Virus record (IMG/VR): IMGVR_UViG_3300010399_000032
From: a virus
Direction: 5' to 3' (one strand)
Length of the DNA: 64,000 bases
Shown: piece after piece, positions 4,663 through 63,536 of the stretch
How the letters are laid out: every line of letters starts with the position of its first letter
How positions within the stretch are numbered: the stretch's first letter is position 1
The notes under the pieces: model-generated
What the model was told of the DNA's origin: nothing
The model's database searches: none
The model's input: the letters and a program-made list of their open reading frames with translations, nothing else
Made by a program: the position numbers and the translations under genes

Positions 4663-6141
4663 TTATGTTTCCTTGAGTTGGATTCTGTATGTTTTGAATG
4701 GAAATTTTTCCTCACTGTATAGGTTAAGACGGGCCCTAAAGTGCCTTAGGGTATGGTTTTCATGGGTTTTATAATGTAGATCATCAGCTATGTCATACAA
4801 TACGGCTACATCTTTATTCTGATTCAGACGTAATGCTCGCCCAATGGATTGTAAGACACGGATTCGAGATTTTGAGGGGGCGGTAAAGATGATATTATGT
4901 AGGTTTTGGATATTTATACCGGTTGAAAAGGTTCCTACGGAAGCGATGATAATACAGTTAGATTCCGTTTCAACCAGTTTTCGGATTTCTTCCCTAATTT
5001 CCACATCAGTTTTACCATACACAAAATAGACATTCCTTCCGGTTCCCTCCAATTTCTTCCGGATCATTTCCTCAAGAATCATACCATGTTTCTTCACATA
5101 CTGGAATAATACCAGGGTGTTTTTGGTCATAGCTACGGCCAGATTGGCAATATATTTATTCCTGGTTTCATTTAGGACCAGGAATTCAATTTCTTCCTGA
5201 TAAGAGGCACCCTTAAGGGCTTTCTTGATATGATCTGGATATTCCAGGACTAATCCATTGATTGCAAACTCTGCGGCAAATTTCTGTTTGATTAATTCAT
5301 GGGTTGAAATAACTCGGTGTACCGGCCCGAACAACCCTTCCAATACCATTTGGTGGGTCTTAGTGCCATCTAATGTTCCGGTGGTACCAATCCTGAATTC
5401 TGCATTAATCAAATTGGACATAATGTATTGGATGGACTTGGCCGTGAATAAATGCGCTTCATCCCCGATCACAAAATCGAATTGCTCGAAAAATTCAGGT
5501 GGCATTGTATAGAGACTTTGCCATGTCGATATGGTAATTGGCTTCTTGGAGTCTTTATCCTGCCCCTGATATATCTTATGTATCAGGGAACCAAACGGTA
5601 ACCCATTGTTTTCCGAATACTCGATAAAATCCCCTGCCATTTGTTCAACCAGGTTAATCGTAGGGACAATAATAAGCCCCTTTTTGTACTTTTTAGCGAG
5701 AAGGAAGTTAATGAGGAGATAGATAATAAGTGATTTACCGGAAGCTGTTGGGGAGAGAAGTAAGATTCTTTGTCGATTAATCGCTGAAATGACAGCATCC
5801 AATTGATATTCCCTAGGATCATGCTTCGGATTGAGTTTTTGGGTGAAAGTTTGAATTTCATCCAAGGTAACGTTGAATGAGTCATCATCTTCATAATCAT
5901 ATTCATAATTATTATCCTTACAGAAAGCTTTAATCTCGGTGACCAATCCGCGATAGATTTTATTCCATCGTCGGTCAAATAAGCGTATTTTACCATCCCA
6001 TCGGTGGTTTTTATATGCTGGAGTAAATCGGGCTCCAGGAACCTCAAAGGTAAACTTATCGGCTAATTCTAACGCAATGCCTTTATCGCATTGAATTTGT
6101 ACCCAGGTCTGATTAATGTTCTTGATAGTTAAGTCAGGCAT
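4663..6141 (-). CDS. uvsW: DNA helicase UvsW
   Basis: PREYQ, SPTASGKS, DEAH, GTTGT and LQSIGR SF2 motifs. Confidence 0.96.
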   Translation of the reverse strand: MPDLTIKNINQTWVQIQCDKGIALELADKFTFEVPGARFTPAYKNHRWDGKIRLFDRRWNKIYRGLVTEIKAFCKDNNYEYDYEDDDSFNVTLDEIQTFTQKLNPKHDPREYQLDAVISAINRQRILLLSPTASGKSLIIYLLINFLLAKKYKKGLIIVPTINLVEQMAGDFIEYSENNGLPFGSLIHKIYQGQDKDSKKPITISTWQSLYTMPPEFFEQFDFVIGDEAHLFTAKSIQYIMSNLINAEFRIGTTGTLDGTKTHQMVLEGLFGPVHRVISTHELIKQKFAAEFAINGLVLEYPDHIKKALKGASYQEEIEFLVLNETRNKYIANLAVAMTKNTLVLFQYVKKHGMILEEMIRKKLEGTGRNVYFVYGKTDVEIREEIRKLVETESNCIIIASVGTFSTGINIQNLHNIIFTAPSKSRIRVLQSIGRALRLNQNKDVAVLYDIADDLHYKTHENHTLRHFRARLNLYSEEKFPFKTYRIQLKET

Positions 6142-10183: not shown

Positions 10184-10206
10184 TAATACTCCTTATTTCC
10201 TTTTAT

Positions 10207-10866
10207 TTATATTTCTGTGATTTTTGACATGAAATTCGTGAAAATTTTCAAAGCTGTAGCTTCAATTTCAGTCTTGCTGGCTTCCTTGATAAGTTTTCTA
10301 GACCTATCATAGTCAACCATTGACCAGTGACCTGTTGGAGTCATAGTCCATTCAGCCTGTTCCATAATACCTTGCACAAATGCGCCTGGAGCAGAAGGAT
10401 CAGCCACCACGTCTGCCGCGGTTGCTAATTTAAAATCATCCTGTACCAATTGATATCCATTATGGGGTTTCAGAGACCCTACGCCTCGTGTTGAAACACC
10501 CAGTGAAGCTCCACCCTCTATTAGACTTTTCACGATCTTTCCATTTGGAGTATCTAGAACTTTTGCTTTTCCGACGAAATTGTTACCGTCGGGATGTAGC
10601 TCGGTGATCATGTGACTTACACGATCTAAATTGATTGAAGGTGCATCTGGGTGCCCTAGTTCACCAAATGCACGGTTTTTGGTAACATAATCTCGGTTGT
10701 ACCTACCGACTTCTCTTTCAAGAATATCTTTAGGATACCAACGACCATTCTTGTTCACCACATTTGATTGTAAGAAAACACCCTTAAGATAGAGGTTTTT
10801 GCCTCCCTTACCGTCTTCCTCAGTCAAAAATTCAGTTTCAATGGTTTCTTCTGTAATGAGTTTCAT
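10207..10866 (-). CDS. 21: Prohead maturation protease (gp21)
   Basis: NKNGRWYP, AFGELGHP, GVSTRGVGSL and DVVADPSAPGAFV motifs. Confidence 0.97.
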   Translation of the reverse strand: MKLITEETIETEFLTEEDGKGGKNLYLKGVFLQSNVVNKNGRWYPKDILEREVGRYNRDYVTKNRAFGELGHPDAPSINLDRVSHMITELHPDGNNFVGKAKVLDTPNGKIVKSLIEGGASLGVSTRGVGSLKPHNGYQLVQDDFKLATAADVVADPSAPGAFVQGIMEQAEWTMTPTGHWSMVDYDRSRKLIKEASKTEIEATALKIFTNFMSKITEI

Positions 10867-10904
10867 TGGTTATCCCTTTGGAATTATTTATGAATTCCTT
10901 ATTT

Positions 10905-17340: not shown

Positions 17341-17369
17341 ATCTTAACTCCTTGTATTTCTTGGATTAT

Positions 17370-17963
17370 TTATGTGGCATACTCACAAAGCCAATGCTTA
17401 TAGTGGTTGAGATTGCCTTTGGCTACGGAAACCATGTTACCAGCATGTAATTTATTTTCTTTACAAAAATCAATCAAACCTTTAATTCTAAAACATTCAC
17501 CTTGAGGATTGGTGATTATATATTCTTTTTGTCGATTTGGGCTTTTTGATCCCTTACGTCTAATATTTTCCTGAACTGTCCATGGGCTAGGAAGACCTTT
17601 ATTCCAACTAGGTTTACCTCGTTTAGACGCGGCAATTTTTTCCTTGGTTTCATCAGATGGATGCCACCCAAACGTTGCATCCCCACCCAAGGTCATATTA
17701 TATCCATTTTCACCAAATGTGTTAAAATGGTTGATCCAGAAATTTTCTCGTTCATTGAGAAGATATTCTTTATTTTCGCTTTGTTCTAATATCGACCATT
17801 CAAAATTATCCCATCCATGGGCCCGAATGGCTCGGTGAAAATGTAATTCTGAACCGCGTTTGGCAGCACTTTTATGCGCTGTTTTCCGGTAGGGCCAATT
17901 ACAATCAAATCCTACGTAAGACTTACCATTTAGTTTATTTTCGGCCCGATAGATTGTGCACAT
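17370..17963 (-). mobile_element. Free-standing GIY-YIG homing endonuclease with NUMOD3-like and HTH C-terminus
   Basis: TIY...GKSYVG, GYNMTLGGD, PSDETKEKIA, SWNKG and FCKENKLHAGNM motifs. Confidence 0.88.
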
Positions 17964-42796: not shown

Positions 42797-42808
42797 GATT
42801 GTTCCTAT

Positions 42809-45190
42809 TTATACTGTCAGGGTTAATATACCCACATCAACATTTCCTGAGGTATTGTTTGCGAAAGCTAAAAGTACGTCAAAAGTTGCTGCAACTGAAT
42901 TTGACCCATTTGCTGTTACCGAAGGTGTTGAAGTATAATCTATACCATAATTTAATACATTGACAGATACGATTGATCCATTTGAATTAATAGTATAGTA
43001 TGCATTGGCTCCGGAACCGTCTCCTGTAATTACCAAATTGCTATTGGAATTATACAATCGTCCAGCATTATTAATGGCAATGGATAAGATATTGCTATAT
43101 TGTTTGACTGTAAACCAATTGGTGTGAGAGTTATTGGTTACTTTATAGATACCATTTGTAACATTATTAATCGATACATTTTCGGTGAAACTTAGATAGA
43201 CAGAATCGTTGACCTTGGTATTCTGGGTTGCATAGGAAATATTGATGGTATTTCCCGTCTTAATGAACGTTTCATGATTGAATTTGATGAAACCAGCATC
43301 CTTTTGACTAGTAGGTGCAGTATAATTCTGGTTTTCTTCTAATAAGGTATATTCACCAAACATCTTCATTCCTGCCGGATGTACAAGTTCCTTGAACATT
43401 TTACGGTAATTGTCAATGGATTCTTGTACTCTCACAACATACGAGAAGTTTTGGTAATAATCTCGGTCTTGTAGAAAATTGAATGAACTAACCTGACCAT
43501 CATCATTAAGATATCTACCCGGATAGGTAAATACACCATCCAAGATAGATGCTGTGGCTGTTGCGGTACCATCACCCGATTGGGACAAATCGATGGTAGG
43601 AGCCGTATCATAATTGAAACCAGCGCTGGTAATGGTGATCTTTTGAATGGCGCCCAGAGTAGTATTTGAACTTTGGAAATCTCCACCCGTACCTAGAAGT
43701 TCTGTAGCTACAATAATTGCCCCATGACCACCACCCGGGCTATTAACTGTTGCGGTAGGCATAAAGTTTATATCATAACCTTCTCCGCCAATCATATGGT
43801 TGGTTATGGGGATGAAACGGGTGGCCGTAATGGCTCCTGTTCCGTTGACCGTGAAAACATTGGCCGCGGCCGCCAAACCATATCCACCGGTAACATTAGT
43901 GAATTCAATAGTGTCACCTACAGAATAACCGGCGCCACCATTCTGAATAACCAATCTCCCAAGTACACCAAGTTCACGAATTCTAGTATTGGCAACCACA
44001 CCAATGCTTGGTATAGACTCAAAATTAAGCCCCGGATCAACAATATTGATAGTGGCCGCCGGACCTGTATTGGCATAAACAAACGAAGTTAAGGAATTCA
44101 TGATAGCCGAATTCATTGGATTTGATAATCCAGAATTCAAATTCGAATAGATTGAGTTATTGATAGGTGTATTAGCCTCGGCCGAAATAAGTGAAATCCA
44201 AATATTATAGGTATTTGGATGAACCGAACCATCAGGAGTAACAGATGAAATATATGCATTGGCTCCGGAACCACCTCCACCAATGATCAGTAAGTTGTTA
44301 TTTGTTTGATATCCAGCGCCACCTTCAATAACGGTGATTGTTGAAATATTACCCGTGGCCACCTGGGTAACAAGTGCCGATCCACCATTTCCTATGTTTG
44401 CACCTGAAGTATCTTTGGCTGAAATGATAATTACAGGATCACCCACATTATAGTGTGATCCTGGGTTATCTAAGATGATATTGGTAATGATAGAATTGTA
44501 AATATCGGCGGAAATGTTATGAGTTTGCCCATTACCATCCAAAAACACCGTTGAAATGTTTTCCCCGGATTTAAATGTTCCTGTGATGCTTGAAAGGGTT
44601 AATTCATCAATTTGGGTACCAGATTCATAGAAACGGTCATGAGATTCGACAATGGCCGTGGCACCTGAGGTATTACCTGTGATACTGGTATTAATGAATT
44701 CATCCATACCTCCAACCGAATTATTGGCAACACCATCAATAGAATTATTAAGAATTCTAAGGGTTTTTTGGATATACCATTTTCCATCCGATGCTCGGAG
44801 AACGTCTTTTTTGGGATAATAGAAGGTTAGTTCCTGCCCATATACCGCGCGCATAAGGAACTTAAAAGATTTCTCCGTACCTTTAGCTCTATAGAAATCT
44901 TTAGCCCGTTTCAAGATAATGGTCTTATCAGCTAAAGTGGTTGTTGGAAAATTAACTAGATATTTGTCATACAACTTATCGGATAGGGCATCCATGGTTG
45001 TATCAATATCATTATAATTTAATAGATTGCGTGACCTTTCGACCACATGCCCAAATTCGGGCGTGGTATTGGCCTGTTCCAAATATCTATAATATGCGGA
45101 AAGGAAATCAAGAAAGGTTTGGTGATCATTGCGTACAAAGAACGGAGCTTGTTCCGCTACAAGTATGCTGATCTTATTATTCGTTGCCAT
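42809..45190 (-). CDS. 7: Baseplate wedge initiator (gp7-like)
   Basis: FYRAKGTEKSFKFL, QDRDYYQNFSYVV and VHPAGMKMFG motifs. Confidence 0.85.
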   Translation of the reverse strand: MATNNKISILVAEQAPFFVRNDHQTFLDFLSAYYRYLEQANTTPEFGHVVERSRNLLNYNDIDTTMDALSDKLYDKYLVNFPTTTLADKTIILKRAKDFYRAKGTEKSFKFLMRAVYGQELTFYYPKKDVLRASDGKWYIQKTLRILNNSIDGVANNSVGGMDEFINTSITGNTSGATAIVESHDRFYESGTQIDELTLSSITGTFKSGENISTVFLDGNGQTHNISADIYNSIITNIILDNPGSHYNVGDPVIIISAKDTSGANIGNGGSALVTQVATGNISTITVIEGGAGYQTNNNLLIIGGGGSGANAYISSVTPDGSVHPNTYNIWISLISAEANTPINNSIYSNLNSGLSNPMNSAIMNSLTSFVYANTGPAATINIVDPGLNFESIPSIGVVANTRIRELGVLGRLVIQNGGAGYSVGDTIEFTNVTGGYGLAAAANVFTVNGTGAITATRFIPITNHMIGGEGYDINFMPTATVNSPGGGHGAIIVATELLGTGGDFQSSNTTLGAIQKITITSAGFNYDTAPTIDLSQSGDGTATATASILDGVFTYPGRYLNDDGQVSSFNFLQDRDYYQNFSYVVRVQESIDNYRKMFKELVHPAGMKMFGEYTLLEENQNYTAPTSQKDAGFIKFNHETFIKTGNTINISYATQNTKVNDSVYLSFTENVSINNVTNGIYKVTNNSHTNWFTVKQYSNILSIAINNAGRLYNSNSNLVITGDGSGANAYYTINSNGSIVSVNVLNYGIDYTSTPSVTANGSNSVAATFDVLLAFANNTSGNVDVGILTLTV

Positions 45191-53369: not shown

Positions 53370-53398
53370 TGATTCTCCTTATTTTCCTATATATTTAT

Positions 53399-53848
53399 AT
53401 GGCTAAACGGGAATCATATAAAGGTTACTTCCGACCTAAAAATCCACAAAAATATGTTGGGGATGTACGCAATATCATTTTTCGGTCCCTTTGGGAAAGG
53501 AAATTTATGGTCTATTGCGATAATGAACCAAACGTCCTCGAATGGTCATCTGAGGAGGTGGTGATTCCATATATTTCTCCGGTGGATGGAAAATACCATA
53601 GATACTTTCCTGATTTCAAGATCAAGATTAAAACCAAGAGCGGTCAGGTCAAAACTCACCTTATAGAAGTCAAGCCTTTAGCTCAAACCGTGCCTCCAGT
53701 TAAAAAGTCACGGATAACGCCAAAATATATAACGGAGGTAACTACTTGGGGTGTTAACCAAGCGAAATGGAAAGCAGCCGAGGAGTTCTGCGACCTCCAA
53801 GGCTGGGAGTTTACTAAGATGACGGAAAAAGAGTTAGGAATAACATAA
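53399..53848 (+). CDS. 4: Head completion nuclease (gp4); start ATG 53399
   Basis: YKG.FRPKNPQKY.GD, RSLWE, WSSEE, HRYFPDF, IEVKP and NQAKWKAA motifs. Confidence 0.95.
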   Translation: MAKRESYKGYFRPKNPQKYVGDVRNIIFRSLWERKFMVYCDNEPNVLEWSSEEVVIPYISPVDGKYHRYFPDFKIKIKTKSGQVKTHLIEVKPLAQTVPPVKKSRITPKYITEVTTWGVNQAKWKAAEEFCDLQGWEFTKMTEKELGIT

Positions 53849-53851
53849 ATA
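53844..53851 (+). promoter_or_regulatory. Late promoter CATAAATA, 5 nt before the gp2 ATG
   Basis: Sequence CATAAATA-tccct-ATG. Confidence 0.65.
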
Positions 53852-58070: not shown

Positions 58071-58973
58071 TTATTCCTCGGCAAGCTTCCTAAAAGCTGC
58101 CAAATCTTCATCATCACTATCGGCAGTATTTTTAGTATCAAAAGGAACTGATATATCCTCTGATTCAGGAGATACTTCGGTTTGTGGTTCCGAATTTTCT
58201 CCCATAACAAAATTCAGGCGAGACTTTAGTTCTTCATATGATTTGAACTGATCGGGACCTGTAATAGCTTTGAGAGAATATTCTGATTTCCAAATCTTTT
58301 CAATTTCATCATCTGTACCAATTGGGGATGGTGCCATGAAAACTGAGTCATCATAATTTGGCATACCACGGATTTCACCCTTCTGGGCAATCGTCTTCAC
58401 CTTCAACTTGAAATTAGCACCAAGCCATGGATCAAACACAGGAACCGGTTCAACCGGATCAAGATCATCCTTTGGTGGCTTAATGGTATTCTGAATCTTG
58501 TCCCAAATCTTCACACCATATGAATATAGGAATACCTTTCCCTCATTTTCAGGAGCCTGTGGGTCGGCAACCACCAGAATATTGGACACATAGCTTAACT
58601 TACGCTTTTGCTTACGTGCCTGTTTACGTTCTGGAGAATCATCAACCTTACCCCTTTCCCAGAGTTTGCTATTAAACTCGGAAACAGGATCGTTCTTTTT
58701 TAGAGTTGTGAGGGAGTTTTCAATATACCACTTTCCAGTTGGTCCTTGGAAAGAGTGATGGAATAGAGGCTGCGACCAAGGCAGACCGTCTTCACCATCC
58801 ATTGGAGGAGAGGGGAGGAACCGAATAATTGCTGATGCATTACCAGCCTTATCTCGGGTAGGCTTCCAGTACCTCGTATCAGCCTGGAATTCACCTTGGT
58901 TCATCTTATCAATTTCTTTGGTGAGTCTTTCGATATCACCTGAGGTCTTTTTGAGTGCTTTAATATCGTACAT
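58071..58973 (-). CDS. 32: Single-stranded DNA-binding protein (gp32); start ATG 58973
   Basis: DTRYWKP, AIIRFLP, WYIENSLTT, KRKLSY and GANFKLK motifs; acidic tail; GGAG SD. Confidence 0.97.
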   Translation of the reverse strand: MYDIKALKKTSGDIERLTKEIDKMNQGEFQADTRYWKPTRDKAGNASAIIRFLPSPPMDGEDGLPWSQPLFHHSFQGPTGKWYIENSLTTLKKNDPVSEFNSKLWERGKVDDSPERKQARKQKRKLSYVSNILVVADPQAPENEGKVFLYSYGVKIWDKIQNTIKPPKDDLDPVEPVPVFDPWLGANFKLKVKTIAQKGEIRGMPNYDDSVFMAPSPIGTDDEIEKIWKSEYSLKAITGPDQFKSYEELKSRLNFVMGENSEPQTEVSPESEDISVPFDTKNTADSDDEDLAAFRKLAEE

Positions 58974-59024
58974 ATATATCTCCGTATCTAATCTTATCCA
59001 CAAAATTCATTGTATAGTTTGAAT

Positions 59025-59053
59025 ATATTAACACCTTATAATAGAGGTGTCAA
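59025..59053 (-). promoter_or_regulatory. sigma70-type promoter for gp32 (TTGACA-N17-TAATAT)
   Basis: Consensus -35, 17-nt spacer, with an ACACCT/AGGTGT inverted repeat overlapping it. Confidence 0.7.
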
Positions 59054-59626
59054 GTTATTTAGTAGTATTCCTTTAATTTTTTCATGGTCGTATTGAAATA
59101 ATTTTGAATATTTTTCCATCAATACAGAGGTTTCTGGCCAGAGGAAATCATTTTCAAGTCGAGCATCTAATAGTTTCTTGAAAGGAATAAAATTATTCAA
59201 AATAATTAGGGTTTCAATGGAGATATCTTTTTGGAGATACAATGTAAATATGATAGGGGATAATCCTTTAAACCATTGCCGAGGATCGGATTGCTCATTG
59301 ATCAGCTTTTGGAGTTCCTGTTCAAAATTGTATGACAGGGCTTGGATATGTTTTTGATGATTGATATAGATGGTTTTAGCATCATTTTCAAGGAGAGACA
59401 TTGACCAAATTTTAGGATTGATCAGAAGATTGGCGATAAAAAAAGCCTTCAACTCTGGAATACGGTAGGTGTTTGCTAATTTTTCAAACACATACTTGTC
59501 CTTCCGAGAGTTGAAGGTCGCCAACGAAATTTTTGCTACACCAAATTTGGTGAAGTCATATGATGTTGTTGCAAAGTGGTTCCTGAGACCCAGGAATAAT
59601 GCATATGTTTCGCGTGCTGTTAGCAT
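59036..59626 (-). CDS. 59: Helicase loader (gp59)
   Basis: Y..FL.LRNHF....YDF.KF, RKDKY.FEKL and ISIETL motifs. Confidence 0.9.
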   Translation of the reverse strand: MLTARETYALFLGLRNHFATTSYDFTKFGVAKISLATFNSRKDKYVFEKLANTYRIPELKAFFIANLLINPKIWSMSLLENDAKTIYINHQKHIQALSYNFEQELQKLINEQSDPRQWFKGLSPIIFTLYLQKDISIETLIILNNFIPFKKLLDARLENDFLWPETSVLMEKYSKLFQYDHEKIKGILLNNLTPLL

Positions 59627-59629
59627 TCA

Positions 59630-60331
59630 TCATATTGTTAGAGAATGTAAGAAAGCGTCCGGCTCCGTATCATCATCCCATTCAGAGGGATAAGACCAAC
59701 CACGAGTCTTGAATTTTTCTATCCTATATGCTGCCGGGAGGCCGATATGATTATATTCAAGATTCTTGCTCTTAATCAAATCGAAGGCGTGCTTACTGAT
59801 ATAGAAATGTTCATAATCACATGAAACCTTGCAATGTTCAAAATCAAATCCATCAATCACGTCCTTACGGCTTTTAAGATCCATTAACATGAATTGGAGA
59901 GTTCTCCCCGCATCTGTTGCGATTTCATAGATATTAATGATGTTGGGCTTTTTATTATATGACCCATCATCTTTGGGTGAGAGGATTTTTCCTTTGCTAC
60001 TTTGCCATGTTGAAAGAATGGTAGCAAATGACATGTCCGCAAATTTATAATTTCCTGCATCAAGAACAAAAATATCAATATCATTGATAGGTTCGCCATT
60101 AATGAGCGATGCAAAATATCCGCCTGCAATGAACATAGGATAGTTAGCCGCACCTTTATATCCTGCGGCATCTAAACCACTATTGATCATAGTGGTGATA
60201 TTTTTGAGTTCGGTAATACCGGTCAGTTTGGCACTATTGATTTCTGCCAATTCAACGGGGGTAAAGGAAGCTGCATTACTGCCTAGAATTTCACCAGCAG
60301 TTTGAGAATTTGTCAATTGAATTGGATCCAT
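59630..60331 (-). CDS. Nucleotidyltransferase-like protein (pol-beta / CCA-polyA head-like)
   Basis: FIAGG..ASL......DIDIF, Q.ML, FDFEHC and R..KF..RGW motifs. Confidence 0.6.
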   Translation of the reverse strand: MDPIQLTNSQTAGEILGSNAASFTPVELAEINSAKLTGITELKNITTMINSGLDAAGYKGAANYPMFIAGGYFASLINGEPINDIDIFVLDAGNYKFADMSFATILSTWQSSKGKILSPKDDGSYNKKPNIINIYEIATDAGRTLQFMLMDLKSRKDVIDGFDFEHCKVSCDYEHFYISKHAFDLIKSKNLEYNHIGLPAAYRIEKFKTRGWSYPSEWDDDTEPDAFLHSLTI

Positions 60332-60558
60332 TATATGGGTAACCGTCTAGTGGTTGTTCGGGGTAAGAAATTGAGCCTGCGTGCTTCTATTTCTAATTTT
60401 TTCTTGAGCGATGGTGAAACCAGCTTTGCGGCCATTTCAACTTCTAGCCCAGTTTTATCGCAATGTTCAATAATCGCATCCATGATAGGAATACGTTTAT
60501 CGATCACAATGGTCTCAATATGTATGGAGAATTTGTTTACTTCATCTTTGGTCGGCAT
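60331..60558 (-). CDS. 33: Late transcription coactivator (gp33)
   Basis: FS..IE, DAII..C...LE.E...KL.S.SLK.KLE.EA..LNFLP motif. Confidence 0.92.
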   Translation of the reverse strand: MPTKDEVNKFSIHIETIVIDKRIPIMDAIIEHCDKTGLEVEMAAKLVSPSLKKKLEIEARRLNFLPRTTTRRLPI

Positions 60559-60773
60559 TAGTTCGCTATCGTCATATCCGGGTCTTCCCGGGCCACTATG
60601 ATAGTGGAAACCTTATCATCCGTCAAGTAAATTGGTCGCCAGCCTTGTCGGTAAATATTATATCCTTCATCGAGTGCAGTTTGCATATTGCTATTGGCAA
60701 TTCCAACGGCTCGCATTTTGTCTCGTGCTTCGACTATAATTTCCTCGGGAATGCGATTAAGCCCACCCATCAT
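60558..60773 (-). CDS. Hypothetical protein
   Basis: GGAG SD; abuts gp33. Confidence 0.6.
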   Translation of the reverse strand: MMGGLNRIPEEIIVEARDKMRAVGIANSNMQTALDEGYNIYRQGWRPIYLTDDKVSTIIVAREDPDMTIAN

Positions 60774-60787
60774 AAACTCCTAAAAAA

Positions 60788-61118
60788 TATGCAACCGTTT
60801 CTGTTTCCAGGTAGGTTGCCCACCCATAGGATTAGGCCGCTAGGGCCATATCCTGACGAACGAAATTATCGTTTGCCTTTAGTTTGATCTTACGTTAACC
60901 CAGTTTGCACGGGATGGTCTACTTCAACCGTATTATCTTCCGGTCGATTCCTGGTTCACCCCCATCAAGAATACACAGGCAACGGCATCCCCGGCGACTA
61001 ACTCCGAATCAAGTGCCTCAGATCCAGTCACGGATAACAGGTCTGTGTATTCATGGTGGAGGTGCGGGGCATCGCATCCCCGGTCCCATGAAGTTTTTGA
61101 TTGATATCATCAACCATG
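60788..61118 (-). ncRNA. ssrA: Circularly permuted (two-piece) tmRNA; ends approximate
   Basis: Acceptor 3' strand CACCTCC-ACCA ending at 61054, preceded by a CGGGG/CCCCG T-arm. The 5' strand GGGGGTG..GGAATCGAC starts downstream at 60963 and gives a G3.U70 pair. Tag ORF GCA AAC GAT AAT...GCG GCC TAA (ANDNFVRQDMALAA) lies at 60876-60832. Confidence 0.93.
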
Positions 61119-61122
61119 GTCA

Positions 61123-61153
61123 TATTTATAGCATAAGGAACTTATAAAGTCAA
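61123..61153 (-). promoter_or_regulatory. Composite promoter for tmRNA: sigma70 TTGACT-N17-TATAAA overlapping late TATAAATA
   Basis: -35 at 61148-61153, 17-nt spacer, perfect TATAAATA at 61123-61130. Confidence 0.75.
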
Positions 61154-61591
61154 CTAAAATTTGACAACCGTACAAACTTGCCCTATTCCTGTGATATCAT
61201 CACATTGAGATTGTGCAGCATCTTGGCTAGGTTCTGGTAAAACAACCTTAAATTTGTTATTAAGTTTGACGATTTTGAGTTTAAGCACATCAAATTGGTG
61301 ATCGAGTATGACTGACATATCGGAGGCATTTTGGAGTGCAGTTTGGGCCTCGGATGCCGTATTGACTTCGGCAAACTGGGCGTAATAGGCTTGACTCGCC
61401 GGCTGACTAGGTGTTGAATTTGGCACAGTTATAGGTTGAACCGAACTAATTGGTGCTGGTTGAACCACAACCTGTTGATTCTGATGGGAAGGAACAAATA
61501 TGGTTGCAGCATAATATCCTCCCACCACAAAGGGTGAAAGGATCATCAAAATTACAAGAATGGGGAATATTTTATTAAACATTAGATGCAC
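61154..61591 (-). CDS. Membrane-anchored protein with SPOR-like C-terminal domain
   Basis: N-terminal TM helix, Pro/Gln linker, Y.AQF....A...L...FKV......AA...C..I.....C.VVK. Confidence 0.6.
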   Translation of the reverse strand: MHLMFNKIFPILVILMILSPFVVGGYYAATIFVPSHQNQQVVVQPAPISSVQPITVPNSTPSQPASQAYYAQFAEVNTASEAQTALQNASDMSVILDHQFDVLKLKIVKLNNKFKVVLPEPSQDAAQSQCDDITGIGQVCTVVKF

Positions 61592-61820
61592 CTTTTAATC
61601 CAGGAATACCACTAAACTTGATGTAAGTATGAGCATCTTCCTGGCGATATGGAACAAAATGGCTTCCATTATATCCAATTAATTGATCAGCTAAAGCTCC
61701 TCGGAGGATTGCCATAGCACCAATTGAAATTCCAGTTCTGAAGGCCCTCTTTTGAAGTTGCCATACTCCACCAATGATGGTGATGAGCAATAAAGCAATC
61801 ATCCAATAATCGAGATACAT
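61575..61820 (-). CDS. Hypothetical membrane protein
   Basis: N-terminal hydrophobic helix; GGAGG SD. Confidence 0.65.
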   Translation of the reverse strand: MYLDYWMIALLLITIIGGVWQLQKRAFRTGISIGAMAILRGALADQLIGYNGSHFVPYRQEDAHTYIKFSGIPGLKGASNV

Positions 61821-62480
61821 TTAATTTTCCTCCTGGTACTTTCTGATTTTCTCTTTGAGTGATAGGATATAATCTGAGGTATCCTTAACATATACCACAG
61901 GTTCTGGCAACTCGTCAACGTGCATGAGGATAACAATTTGTTTCATTGTAATTCCTGTCATATCTCGGTACATGATACCATATGCTGCCAACTGTTCGAA
62001 ATAATGTTGGATCCAAGCTTCCTTTTTAGCTCGAACCGAGGTTTTATGATCAATAATCGACCCGATACCATCAAATTCCGCTATTACATCTGTTCGGCCG
62101 GCCATTCCCAATTTAAGGGAATATAAGGAAGCCTCAACATGGTGTATATTATTGATCCGGTTTAATACGGGCATAAATTTGTGGAAGGCTTCTGCATTGT
62201 CTTTTGAGGTTTTGGAAAAGTCTAGCTCTTTATTTTTGAGATAACTTTCTGCCAAAGAATGGAAAGAATTGCCTCGGCTTGTGGCTTTGGAGGAGACCTT
62301 ATTGGCCTCCTCCTCTCCAACTCGATTCCGCCATCGAATGATTTTTTCCTTATCGAAATACCCTAGGACAGTGGTCACGGAAGGTAATCTACCCGCAGGG
62401 GTCAGATAAAACCGTTTACCATCTACCGTTTCGGTCTTGATATCAGGTAAAGGATGAAAATCTAGATAGGTAAATGTCAA
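61821..62480 (-). CDS. PD-(D/E)xK exonuclease (T4-like exonuclease A / Cas4-like fold)
   Basis: LPSVTTVL, W..RVG.EEA, RG..FH, AGRTD...IIDHKTS and Q..AY motifs. Confidence 0.9.
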   Translation of the reverse strand: MTFTYLDFHPLPDIKTETVDGKRFYLTPAGRLPSVTTVLGYFDKEKIIRWRNRVGEEEANKVSSKATSRGNSFHSLAESYLKNKELDFSKTSKDNAEAFHKFMPVLNRINNIHHVEASLYSLKLGMAGRTDVIAEFDGIGSIIDHKTSVRAKKEAWIQHYFEQLAAYGIMYRDMTGITMKQIVILMHVDELPEPVVYVKDTSDYILSLKEKIRKYQEEN

Positions 62481-62481
62481 A

Positions 62482-63195
62482 TCATAATCCTAATTCAGTT
62501 TTTTGGATGATATAATCTTTGACCAATCCTGATCGGACAATATCAGCCTTATCAAATTCAATATGTTCAAAGGTATTTATCTTGCGGGCAATCTTAATGA
62601 AATCGTTGATACCACTAAAATCTGTTGGTTTTGTTAAATCCGTTTGTCTATAATCACCACAAAAAATGATCCTTGAATTGTTACCCACACGAGTCATTAT
62701 GGTGTCTATTTCCTGGAAATTCATGTTTTGAGTTTCATCGACCAGGATAATCGCATCATTGAAAGTCAGACCTCGTAAGAAAGATGTAGTGGTAAATTCC
62801 ACCAATTTCTTCATCTTAAGGATATCATATCCATCTCCTCGCCCAAATAAATCATCGGCGATTTGTTTATAAGGTTCTTCGAATACCTTGGTCTTTTCCT
62901 TAGTAGAACCAGGAAGGAATCCCATATCACGGCTTTGTACTACGGAACGAATGATTATTACTTTATCATAAGGAGAATCATTAGTCAAGACATCCTTGAG
63001 AGCCAAATAAAAAGAAATGTAGGTTTTACCGGTACCTGCGTATCCGTGCAAATTTAGATGTTTTCCTGCATAATAAGCATTGAAACACTTTGCTTGGTTG
63101 GTAGTGAGAGGTATAACCTTTTTTAGTTGAAAGCGTTCATTAAGTTGAGGCTGATCACCGGATGCATTAAGTGTTTTTCTTGATACTCTTTTCAT
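62482..63195 (-). CDS. phoH: PhoH-like ATPase; start probably ATG 63195
   Basis: GYAGTGKT, GFLPG, FLRGLTF, VDETQN, TRVG, GDYRQTD and DIVRSGLVK motifs; GGAG SD. Confidence 0.95.
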   Translation of the reverse strand: MKRVSRKTLNASGDQPQLNERFQLKKVIPLTTNQAKCFNAYYAGKHLNLHGYAGTGKTYISFYLALKDVLTNDSPYDKVIIIRSVVQSRDMGFLPGSTKEKTKVFEEPYKQIADDLFGRGDGYDILKMKKLVEFTTTSFLRGLTFNDAIILVDETQNMNFQEIDTIMTRVGNNSRIIFCGDYRQTDLTKPTDFSGINDFIKIARKINTFEHIEFDKADIVRSGLVKDYIIQKTELGL

Positions 63196-63212
63196 TTTAG
63201 CTCCTGGAAATG

Positions 63213-63247
63213 AAAAAGGGCCAGTACGCTTGGCGTACCGACCCTTT
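63213..63247 (-). terminator. Terminator-like hairpin just upstream of the phoH RBS
   Basis: AAGGGTCGGTACGC-CAA-GCGTACTGGCCCTT stem followed by a T run. Confidence 0.6.
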
Positions 63248-63278
63248 CCCGTTAATATAACCTTAAATAGACTTTTCT

Positions 63279-63536
63279 TTACCATTCCCGGGGAATAGCC
63301 CACCTTCTTTCGATTGCAGGCCCGGGATGGGTTTCTTTTATACGACCTAAAACATTCTTTAAAAATTCCGTGGGAGGGCGAGTTACCCCTATACCAACTG
63401 GATCAACCACATTCGGAACCCCGATGACATATTGCATTTCTGGATGTTCTGCCAGATAATTCTCGTGGTCCTCGTTACTTAAAAATTCTGTATGTCTTTC
63501 ACCTGTTATGGTATTTTCATAAGTTTTGACGATCAT
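63279..63536 (-). CDS. Conserved small T4-like protein upstream of phoH; start ATG 63536
   Basis: TY.N..TGE.....S..D...YL..HP...VL.RIK..HPG pattern; AAGGAG SD; GATAAATA at 63557-63564. Confidence 0.75.
   Translation of the reverse strand: MIVKTYENTITGERHTEFLSNEDHENYLAEHPEMQYVIGVPNVVDPVGIGVTRPPTEFLKNVLGRIKETHPGPAIERRWAIPREW

Follow-up and report, generated by a model that had tools for sequence, protein, structure and literature searches.

The closest described counterpart of the gene reported here is the two-piece ssrA of pelagimyophage-like T4-like phages such as the OM43 phage Melnitz, in which it lies directly upstream of the gene for the late-transcription coactivator (Buchholz et al. 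2022, PMC9004378). That survey covered 18,146 phage genomes and counted 53 two-piece tmRNAs, of which 50 were marine or aquatic; permuted tmRNAs were present in 17 of 47 Melnitz-like contigs (PMC9004378). A glutamine riboswitch at the 3′ end of ssrA was reported for Melnitz and Mosig only, and the authors did not treat it as a defining feature (PMC9004378). The same permuted order is known from the alphaproteobacterial two-piece tmRNA (RF01849), the Caulobacter type of Keiler, Shapiro and Williams (2000, cited in PMC9004378). Other phage-encoded tmRNAs, those of Bxz1 and the cluster C1 actinobacteriophages and of Bacillus phage G, are likewise presumed to work with host SmpB, but they are one-piece molecules without permutation and belong to other lineages, loci and tag families (PMC4131195, PMC11915505). 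A paper on a Rhizobium T4-like phage mentioned tmRNA only in a reference.

The window, i.e., the whole 64-kb stretch of DNA that was analysed, belongs to a T4-like myovirus. It encodes a portal, a tail sheath, a large terminase, baseplate wedge and hub proteins, a tail fibre, a gp46-like nuclease subunit, gp32, gp59, gp33 and PhoH (PHROGs, Pfam). Its G+C content is about 40%. The nearest isolates are marine cyanomyophages, with only about 50% amino-acid identity (portal, gp32). DNA around the gene was found in soil metagenomes, with at least half of the sampled words present in 11 runs, and all runs holding such words came from ten studies; no RNA run was among those listed. The phage is therefore regarded as a soil phage.

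The phage DNA carries an alpha-type tmRNA gene that is circularly permuted and encodes its own tag. The sequence-only reading had described such a gene with an ANDN...ALAA tag, and this description was borne out on every point tested. A permuted tmRNA was the sole gene that ARAGORN called in the window (60741..61147, minus strand), flagged tmRNA* and with the tag ANDNFVRQDMALAA*. Rfam cmscan matched the same region with two models over their full lengths. The tmRNA_permuted model (RF04321) gave 90.1 bits with an E-value of 5e-16 at 60832..61117 on the minus strand (model positions 1–213 of 213), and the alpha_tmRNA model (RF01849) gave 68.8 bits at 60790..61171 on the minus strand (model positions 1–355 of 355). 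The curated gathering cut-offs of these models are 47 bits and 50 bits, respectively. No non-canonical consensus pair was flagged in the RF04321 alignment.

On the minus strand, the T-arm, the 3′ acceptor strand and the CCA precede the 5′ acceptor strand and the tag frame, which is the permuted order. The acceptor piece (64 nt, 61054..61117, minus strand) holds the 5′ strands of helix 2, the T-arm, CACCUCC and an encoded ACCA, as placed by Rfam, ARAGORN and the sequence itself. It is followed by an intervening segment of 90 nt (60964..61053, minus strand). The coding piece of about 182 nt (60782..60963, minus strand) was delimited from ARAGORN, Rfam and sequence, with its exact 3′ end placed from a hairpin and U-run. 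It contains the 5′ acceptor strand GGGGGUG with G3, a D-loop analogue, the 3′ strands of helix 2, the tag frame, the 3′ hairpin and the U-run. Both the sequence and the model alignment confirmed the earlier placement of the acceptor piece before the 5′ GGGGGTG strand, with the ACCA ending at 61054 and G1 at 60963, and the 90-nt length of the segment between them (61053–60964) also agreed.

GGGGGUG from 60963 pairs with CACCUCC (61064–61058) to give a 7-bp acceptor stem that includes the G3.U70 pair, exactly as the sequence-only reading had it, and a discriminator A precedes the CCA, so the identity elements for alanine are complete. The cross-piece pairings that had been proposed for helix 2 (ACCAT/ATGGT, GGTTGA/TCAATC, and GAAG/CTTC) were all recovered in the Rfam alignment, where the helix reads AUGGU/ACCAU, UCAAUC/GGUUGA, and CUUC-UGG/CCG-GAAG and all consensus pairs are canonical. 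Minimum free energy cofolding of the two pieces returned the acceptor stem and the T-arm, and helix 2 was replaced by local hairpins. The tag frame (60832..60876, minus strand; ARAGORN coding part 272–316 of the gene) begins with the alanine resume codon GCA, encodes ANDNFVRQDMALAA with a hydrophobic ...LAA end, and terminates with UAA. Like the window, the alphaproteobacterial tmRNA has two pieces joined by acceptor stem and helix 2, an encoded CCA, an ANDN-type tag and a conserved 3′ hairpin loop motif. Unlike it, the window gene is located on a lytic phage, has phage-type promoter signals, and has no adjacent or phage-encoded smpB that we could find.

The T-stem CGGGG/CCCCG encloses an 8-nt loop, AUGCGAUG, instead of the canonical 7 nt. 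This non-canonical loop had been noticed in the sequence-only reading and was upheld as one inserted base relative to both Rfam models. As both detectors accept the gene, we treat the loop as a deviation within the family and not as a defining failure. The T-loops of relatives are 7 nt long (UGCGAUU or GGCAGUA) among the IMG/VR matches listed. The same 8-nt loop is present in contigs of runs X6 and X13, which belong to two independent studies; an assembly error is thereby excluded as the source of the extra base. The T-loop 8-mer in combination with this acceptor stem occurred in no tmRNA of the viral, cellular and metagenome collections scanned. The metagenome scan for the 8-nt loop plus acceptor did return 29 matches, but ARAGORN called no tRNA or tmRNA in any of them, and their coding-DNA context makes them look like chance matches. 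The T-loop site (61070–61077, minus strand) carries an extra A. The D-loop analogue (60940–60949, minus strand) reads GGAAUCGAC; it too is longer by one A than the GG-AUCGAC of most relatives. These one-base insertions in the T-loop and the D-loop analogue could be a matched change at the loop–loop contact.

The intervening segment contains no credible gene. Its ends form a closing stem in which 61052–61043 pairs with 60978–60969 over 10 contiguous pairs, followed by an A.C mismatch and one more pair, and the fold of the spacer with this stem has an energy of −33.6 kcal/mol and a z-score of −3.3 (ViennaRNA). A closing inverted repeat had been predicted here and is present, but not at the predicted 12 bp, as 11 of the 12 positions are complementary and 10 contiguous pairs form in the RNA. 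Since the CCA end lies within the precursor, charging logically requires that the spacer be removed. At the other end of the gene, the 3′ terminal hairpin and U-run occupy 60782..60819 on the minus strand. The hairpin stem is GCAACC/GGUUGC (60819–60814 with 60796–60791), the U-run is at 60787–60782, and the loop motif CCUGGAAACAGAA matches the alpha_tmRNA consensus ACCuGGCAACAGAA. Among the IMG/VR matches listed, this loop motif is kept in all related phage genes compared, with a varying stem. The hairpin and U-run likely double as a terminator.

The gene is located between phoH and a PD-(D/E)XK nuclease gene on one side and gp33-gp59-gp32 on the other, all on the minus strand. The upstream block (61154..63303) contains a PhoH-like gene (62482–63303, PHROGs), the PD-(D/E)XK nuclease (61821–62480; PHROGs, Pfam PDDEXK_1), orf81 with no family, and orf145 (438 nt, 61154–61591), which lies just upstream of ssrA and has no Pfam or PHROG family. 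Orf145 is an orphan; its one homologue among 5.8 billion proteins, 99% identical, is encoded on a 664-bp ENA contig. The downstream block (58071..60773) contains orf71 (71 aa, 60558–60773), which has an AGGAG ribosome-binding site and no family, the gp33 late-transcription coactivator (60331–60558; Pfam PF16805 Trans_coact, 59.2 bits), a nucleotidyltransferase-like gene of 233 aa between gp33 and gp59 (PHROGs), the gp59 helicase loader (59036–59626, PHROGs), and the gp32 single-stranded DNA-binding protein (58071–59003, PHROGs). No SmpB gene was detected by tblastn with E. coli SmpB in the 64-kb window or in related loci; host SmpB is therefore presumably used, and the function of the RNA would depend on its compatibility with the SmpB and AlaRS of the host.

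The gene order of both blocks is the same as in Melnitz (Methylophilales OM43, MZ577097), also a T4-like myovirus with a permuted alpha-type tmRNA, where PhoH, PDDEXK nuclease, two small ORFs, ssrA, gp33, gp59, thyX and gp32 follow each other. The Melnitz promoter reads TTGACA-17-TATAAATA (4934–4964 of the Melnitz locus examined) and that of the window TTGACT-17-TATAAATA. The Melnitz tag, ANDNYVPVDYALAA, is of the ANDN...ALAA type like that of the window, and the 3′ hairpins have the ...AACAGAA loop in common. In spite of this agreement, blastn detected no nucleotide similarity between the two loci, and the neighbouring proteins are only about 30–50% identical. The loci also differ in several details. 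With about 140 nt, the spacer of Melnitz is longer than that of the window (90 nt), the acceptor pair 6–67 is C-G in Melnitz and U-A in the window, the 8-nt T-loop belongs to the window, and the habitats are seawater and soil, respectively. In Melnitz, the tmRNA is immediately followed by a glutamine riboswitch (RF01739, 52.8 bits), whereas the window gave no Rfam match to a glutamine riboswitch at E-values up to 5 in 60300–61700. In the window, orf71 starts a few bases past the terminator-like hairpin and abuts gp33; the equivalent interval of Melnitz is occupied by the riboswitch. The Melnitz spacer (5043–5175 of the same Melnitz locus) was also seen to contain an ATG after GGAGAAG with an open frame into the coding piece, and the window spacer is empty.

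The sequence-only reading had implied that two-piece tmRNAs are rare in phages. That view could not be maintained, since such genes are published for aquatic T4-like phages and a pattern scan of IMG/VR for this acceptor stem with a spacer of 75–105 nt found at least 120 contigs. ARAGORN called a permuted tmRNA in 69 of these, all with ANDN/ANDE...LAA-type tags. Neighbour genes were shared with the window in 50 of the 69 tmRNA-bearing contigs, at 25–68% amino-acid identity, among the matches listed, and the downstream neighbours are arranged there as in the window. Sharing of the neighbours at such low identity points to long retention and makes ssrA an old resident of this phage group. Among the related phages in the IMG/VR matches listed, the tag ends ANDN and ALAA are kept and the middles are variable. 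Four contigs of the scan (L049, L065, L089, and L108) have this acceptor stem, G+C-rich flanks, ...ALRLAA tags and no phage-type promoter; no matches to T4-like neighbour genes were found in them, which makes a cellular or prophage-border origin of these tmRNA genes probable.

Close relatives of the window gene were sought by several routes. The tmRNA region had no blastn match in 50,697 phage records, and an exact 32-mer from the tag region had none in IMG/VR. A gp59-based search for related loci in IMG/VR confirmed none, and in the 120 IMG/VR loci listed, blastn with the gene detected short conserved blocks only, without a close relative. Neither the exact 28-mer of the T-arm and acceptor nor a 24-nt pattern taken from the 5′ piece was matched in scans of cellular genomes.

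The related genes were then compared for covariation. RNAalifold, run without a supplied structure on a trimmed MAFFT alignment of the window and 51 phage genes from the IMG/VR matches listed, recovered the T-arm, the proximal part of helix 2, the acceptor stem and an 11-bp spacer-closing stem, with compensatory changes in 21 of 28 pairs. The spacer-closing stem is 96% paired and has 12–27 double-sided changes per pair across 61 phage tmRNAs from the IMG/VR matches listed; these counts come from the first MAFFT alignment, in which the counts for helix 2 and for the T-arm of the window are poor because the extra loop base shifts the alignment. At least 15 different Watson–Crick T-stems occur among the relatives, and the T-stem covaries. 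For helix 2, the duplex energy was −13.8 kcal/mol for cognate and −11.4 kcal/mol for non-cognate strands in 61 phages from the IMG/VR matches listed, a modest signal, and the own helix 2 partner of the window ranked 3 (0 = best) of 61 on this scale among the same listed matches. Natural variants were compared across contigs from four soil runs, a small sample of low-depth contigs. Only two variant sites fell in ssrA (60998 and 61007), both inside the spacer, whereas seven of the ten sites that varied over the 1.4 kb compared lie in orf145.

Upstream of the gene, a −35-like TTGACT (61148..61153, minus strand) is located 17 nt upstream of TATAAA, and the −10 element TATAAATA (61123..61130, minus strand) is identical to the T4 late-promoter motif. 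The transcript would start at about 61117, which is the first base of helix 2. An exact TATAAATA was present at a fixed distance in 27 of 61 distinct related phage ssrA genes, and TTGACA or a 5/6 match to it was present at the −35 position with 16–18 nt spacing in 25 of the 61, both among the IMG/VR matches listed. Within the IMG/VR matches listed, TATAAATA served as −10 in 11 of 28 promoters upstream of ssrA and in 7 of 130 elsewhere (Fisher p = 1e-5), where the comparison covers unique sigma70-like promoters within the same loci and the relatedness of these loci inflates the test. Position 6 of the −10 element was T in 99 and A in 20 of the 130 non-ssrA promoters of these listed matches. A generic promoter and terminator scan listed neither the ssrA promoter nor the 3′ hairpin. 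The promoter was missed because its −10 lacks T at position 6, and the hairpin because of the loop-size rules of the scan.

Elsewhere in the window, six late genes, among them baseplate and tail-tube cap genes, have a NATAAATA motif 6–27 nt before their start, five on the minus strand (53392–53399, 42806–42813, 10204–10211, 17367–17374, and 10885–10892) and one on the plus strand (53844–53851). These motifs are probably the late promoters of the phage. Taken as a sigma70 −10 element, TATAAATA is without the usual T at position 6, yet it is at the same time a perfect T4-type late promoter for gp55/gp33. It is thus possible, although we propose it tentatively and from sequence features, that ssrA in the phage group that includes this phage has a composite promoter, a sigma70 −35 with TATAAATA, and is made both early and late. 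In that case, host RNA polymerase would make the tmRNA early and its phage-modified form would make it late, and the RNA would serve as a rescue factor throughout infection, in contrast to the early-only expression from an early promoter that has been suggested in print. On either promoter reading, transcription would begin with the first base of helix 2, which would make processing of the 5′ end unnecessary. Since orf71 with its AGGAG site follows the U-run, some read-through into orf71 and gp33 is possible.

The evidence was also weighed against three other explanations. The mycobacteriophage DS6A has a tag-less tmRNA that consists of the tRNA-like domain only, in another phage lineage and at another locus, and a decoy role was proposed for it; a tRNA-like-domain-only molecule strongly inhibits tmRNA, perhaps via SmpB titration (PMC4131195, PMC11915505). 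By analogy, the RNA of the window might mainly soak up host SmpB or block host trans-translation instead of rescuing ribosomes, and both the lack of an SmpB gene in the window and the atypical T-loop are consistent with this. We consider it unlikely, because a pure decoy would not need a full tag frame with alanine resume codon, ALAA end and stop, whose ends are conserved in dozens of divergent relatives. Helix 2 and the 3′ hairpin are also kept. The wide differences between tag middles of related phages with fixed ends, among the IMG/VR matches listed, could alternatively mean that the RNA works in trans-translation and that its diverged middle, VRQDM, was selected to alter the choice of adaptor or protease. 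Selective tagging was raised as a possibility for such phages (PMC9004378), and host proteins might, for example, be recycled or phage proteins spared. But variable middles are normal among cellular tmRNAs too, so this observation is not specific to reprogramming, and trans-translation targets stalled ribosomes whichever organism encoded the mRNA. This explanation therefore appears very unlikely to us. Redirection of ClpXP tagging and resistance to host nucleases, both suggested in the sequence-only reading, find no specific support in the present results.

It was also considered that the gene is an unused, decaying passenger, host DNA picked up by chance, e.g., via a temperate phage as discussed for Melnitz. 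tmRNA genes are common integration sites, fragments of them occur in prophages, and the case of Melnitz shows that an alpha-type form does not have to correspond to the host (PMC9004378). A passenger would hardly be expected at the same locus in phages whose neighbouring proteins are only 25–68% identical (among the IMG/VR matches listed), nor with covarying helices and a conserved promoter. The few variants across the four soil runs spare the mature parts, and the two cellular-genome scans (28-mer and 24-nt 5′-piece pattern) gave no source. We regard chance capture as highly improbable.

We are thus confident that the gene is a functional ssrA, carried by a lytic T4-like phage from soil and very probably inherited within the Melnitz-related T4-like group, which is filed under Kyanoviridae in GenBank, and not freshly captured from a host. 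In the mechanism that we propose for this functional gene, a single precursor would be transcribed from the sigma70 −35 plus TATAAATA promoter, starting near 61117 and ending near 60782 at the 3′ hairpin and U-run. Processing would then remove the 90-nt spacer, which the covarying stem holds out. Cleavage by RNase P would turn G1 (60963) into a 5′ end, and the encoded CCA (61054) would be the point at which trimming of the 3′ end stops. The two pieces would remain joined via the acceptor stem and helix 2. Host AlaRS would charge the RNA through G3.U70, and host SmpB and EF-Tu would deliver it to ribosomes stalled on broken mRNAs. Translation would resume on GCA and add ANDNFVRQDMALAA, by which the product would be marked for host ClpXP-type proteases. 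The likely benefit is that ribosome rescue could continue once the host genome has been shut down or destroyed by the phage and mRNAs decay faster.

This kind of gene is already known, as related aquatic phages carry the same gene at the same spot. So far, the feature had been described mostly in T4-like phages of marine and aquatic origin; the present locus adds a soil phage, which was met repeatedly in the soil metagenomes of several studies. Compared with the described examples, it stands out by its soil habitat, its 8-nt T-loop, its short gene-free spacer and the lack of a glutamine riboswitch. The additions to the general picture are modest: the occurrence in soil, a spacer stem that covaries across the family, and the composition of the promoter, in which the combination of a sigma70 −35 with TATAAATA in this phage group is an unreported detail. 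The locus, the promoter and the covarying processing stem are conserved in spite of neighbour identities of only 25–68%, which argues for long vertical retention and real use of the phage tmRNA.
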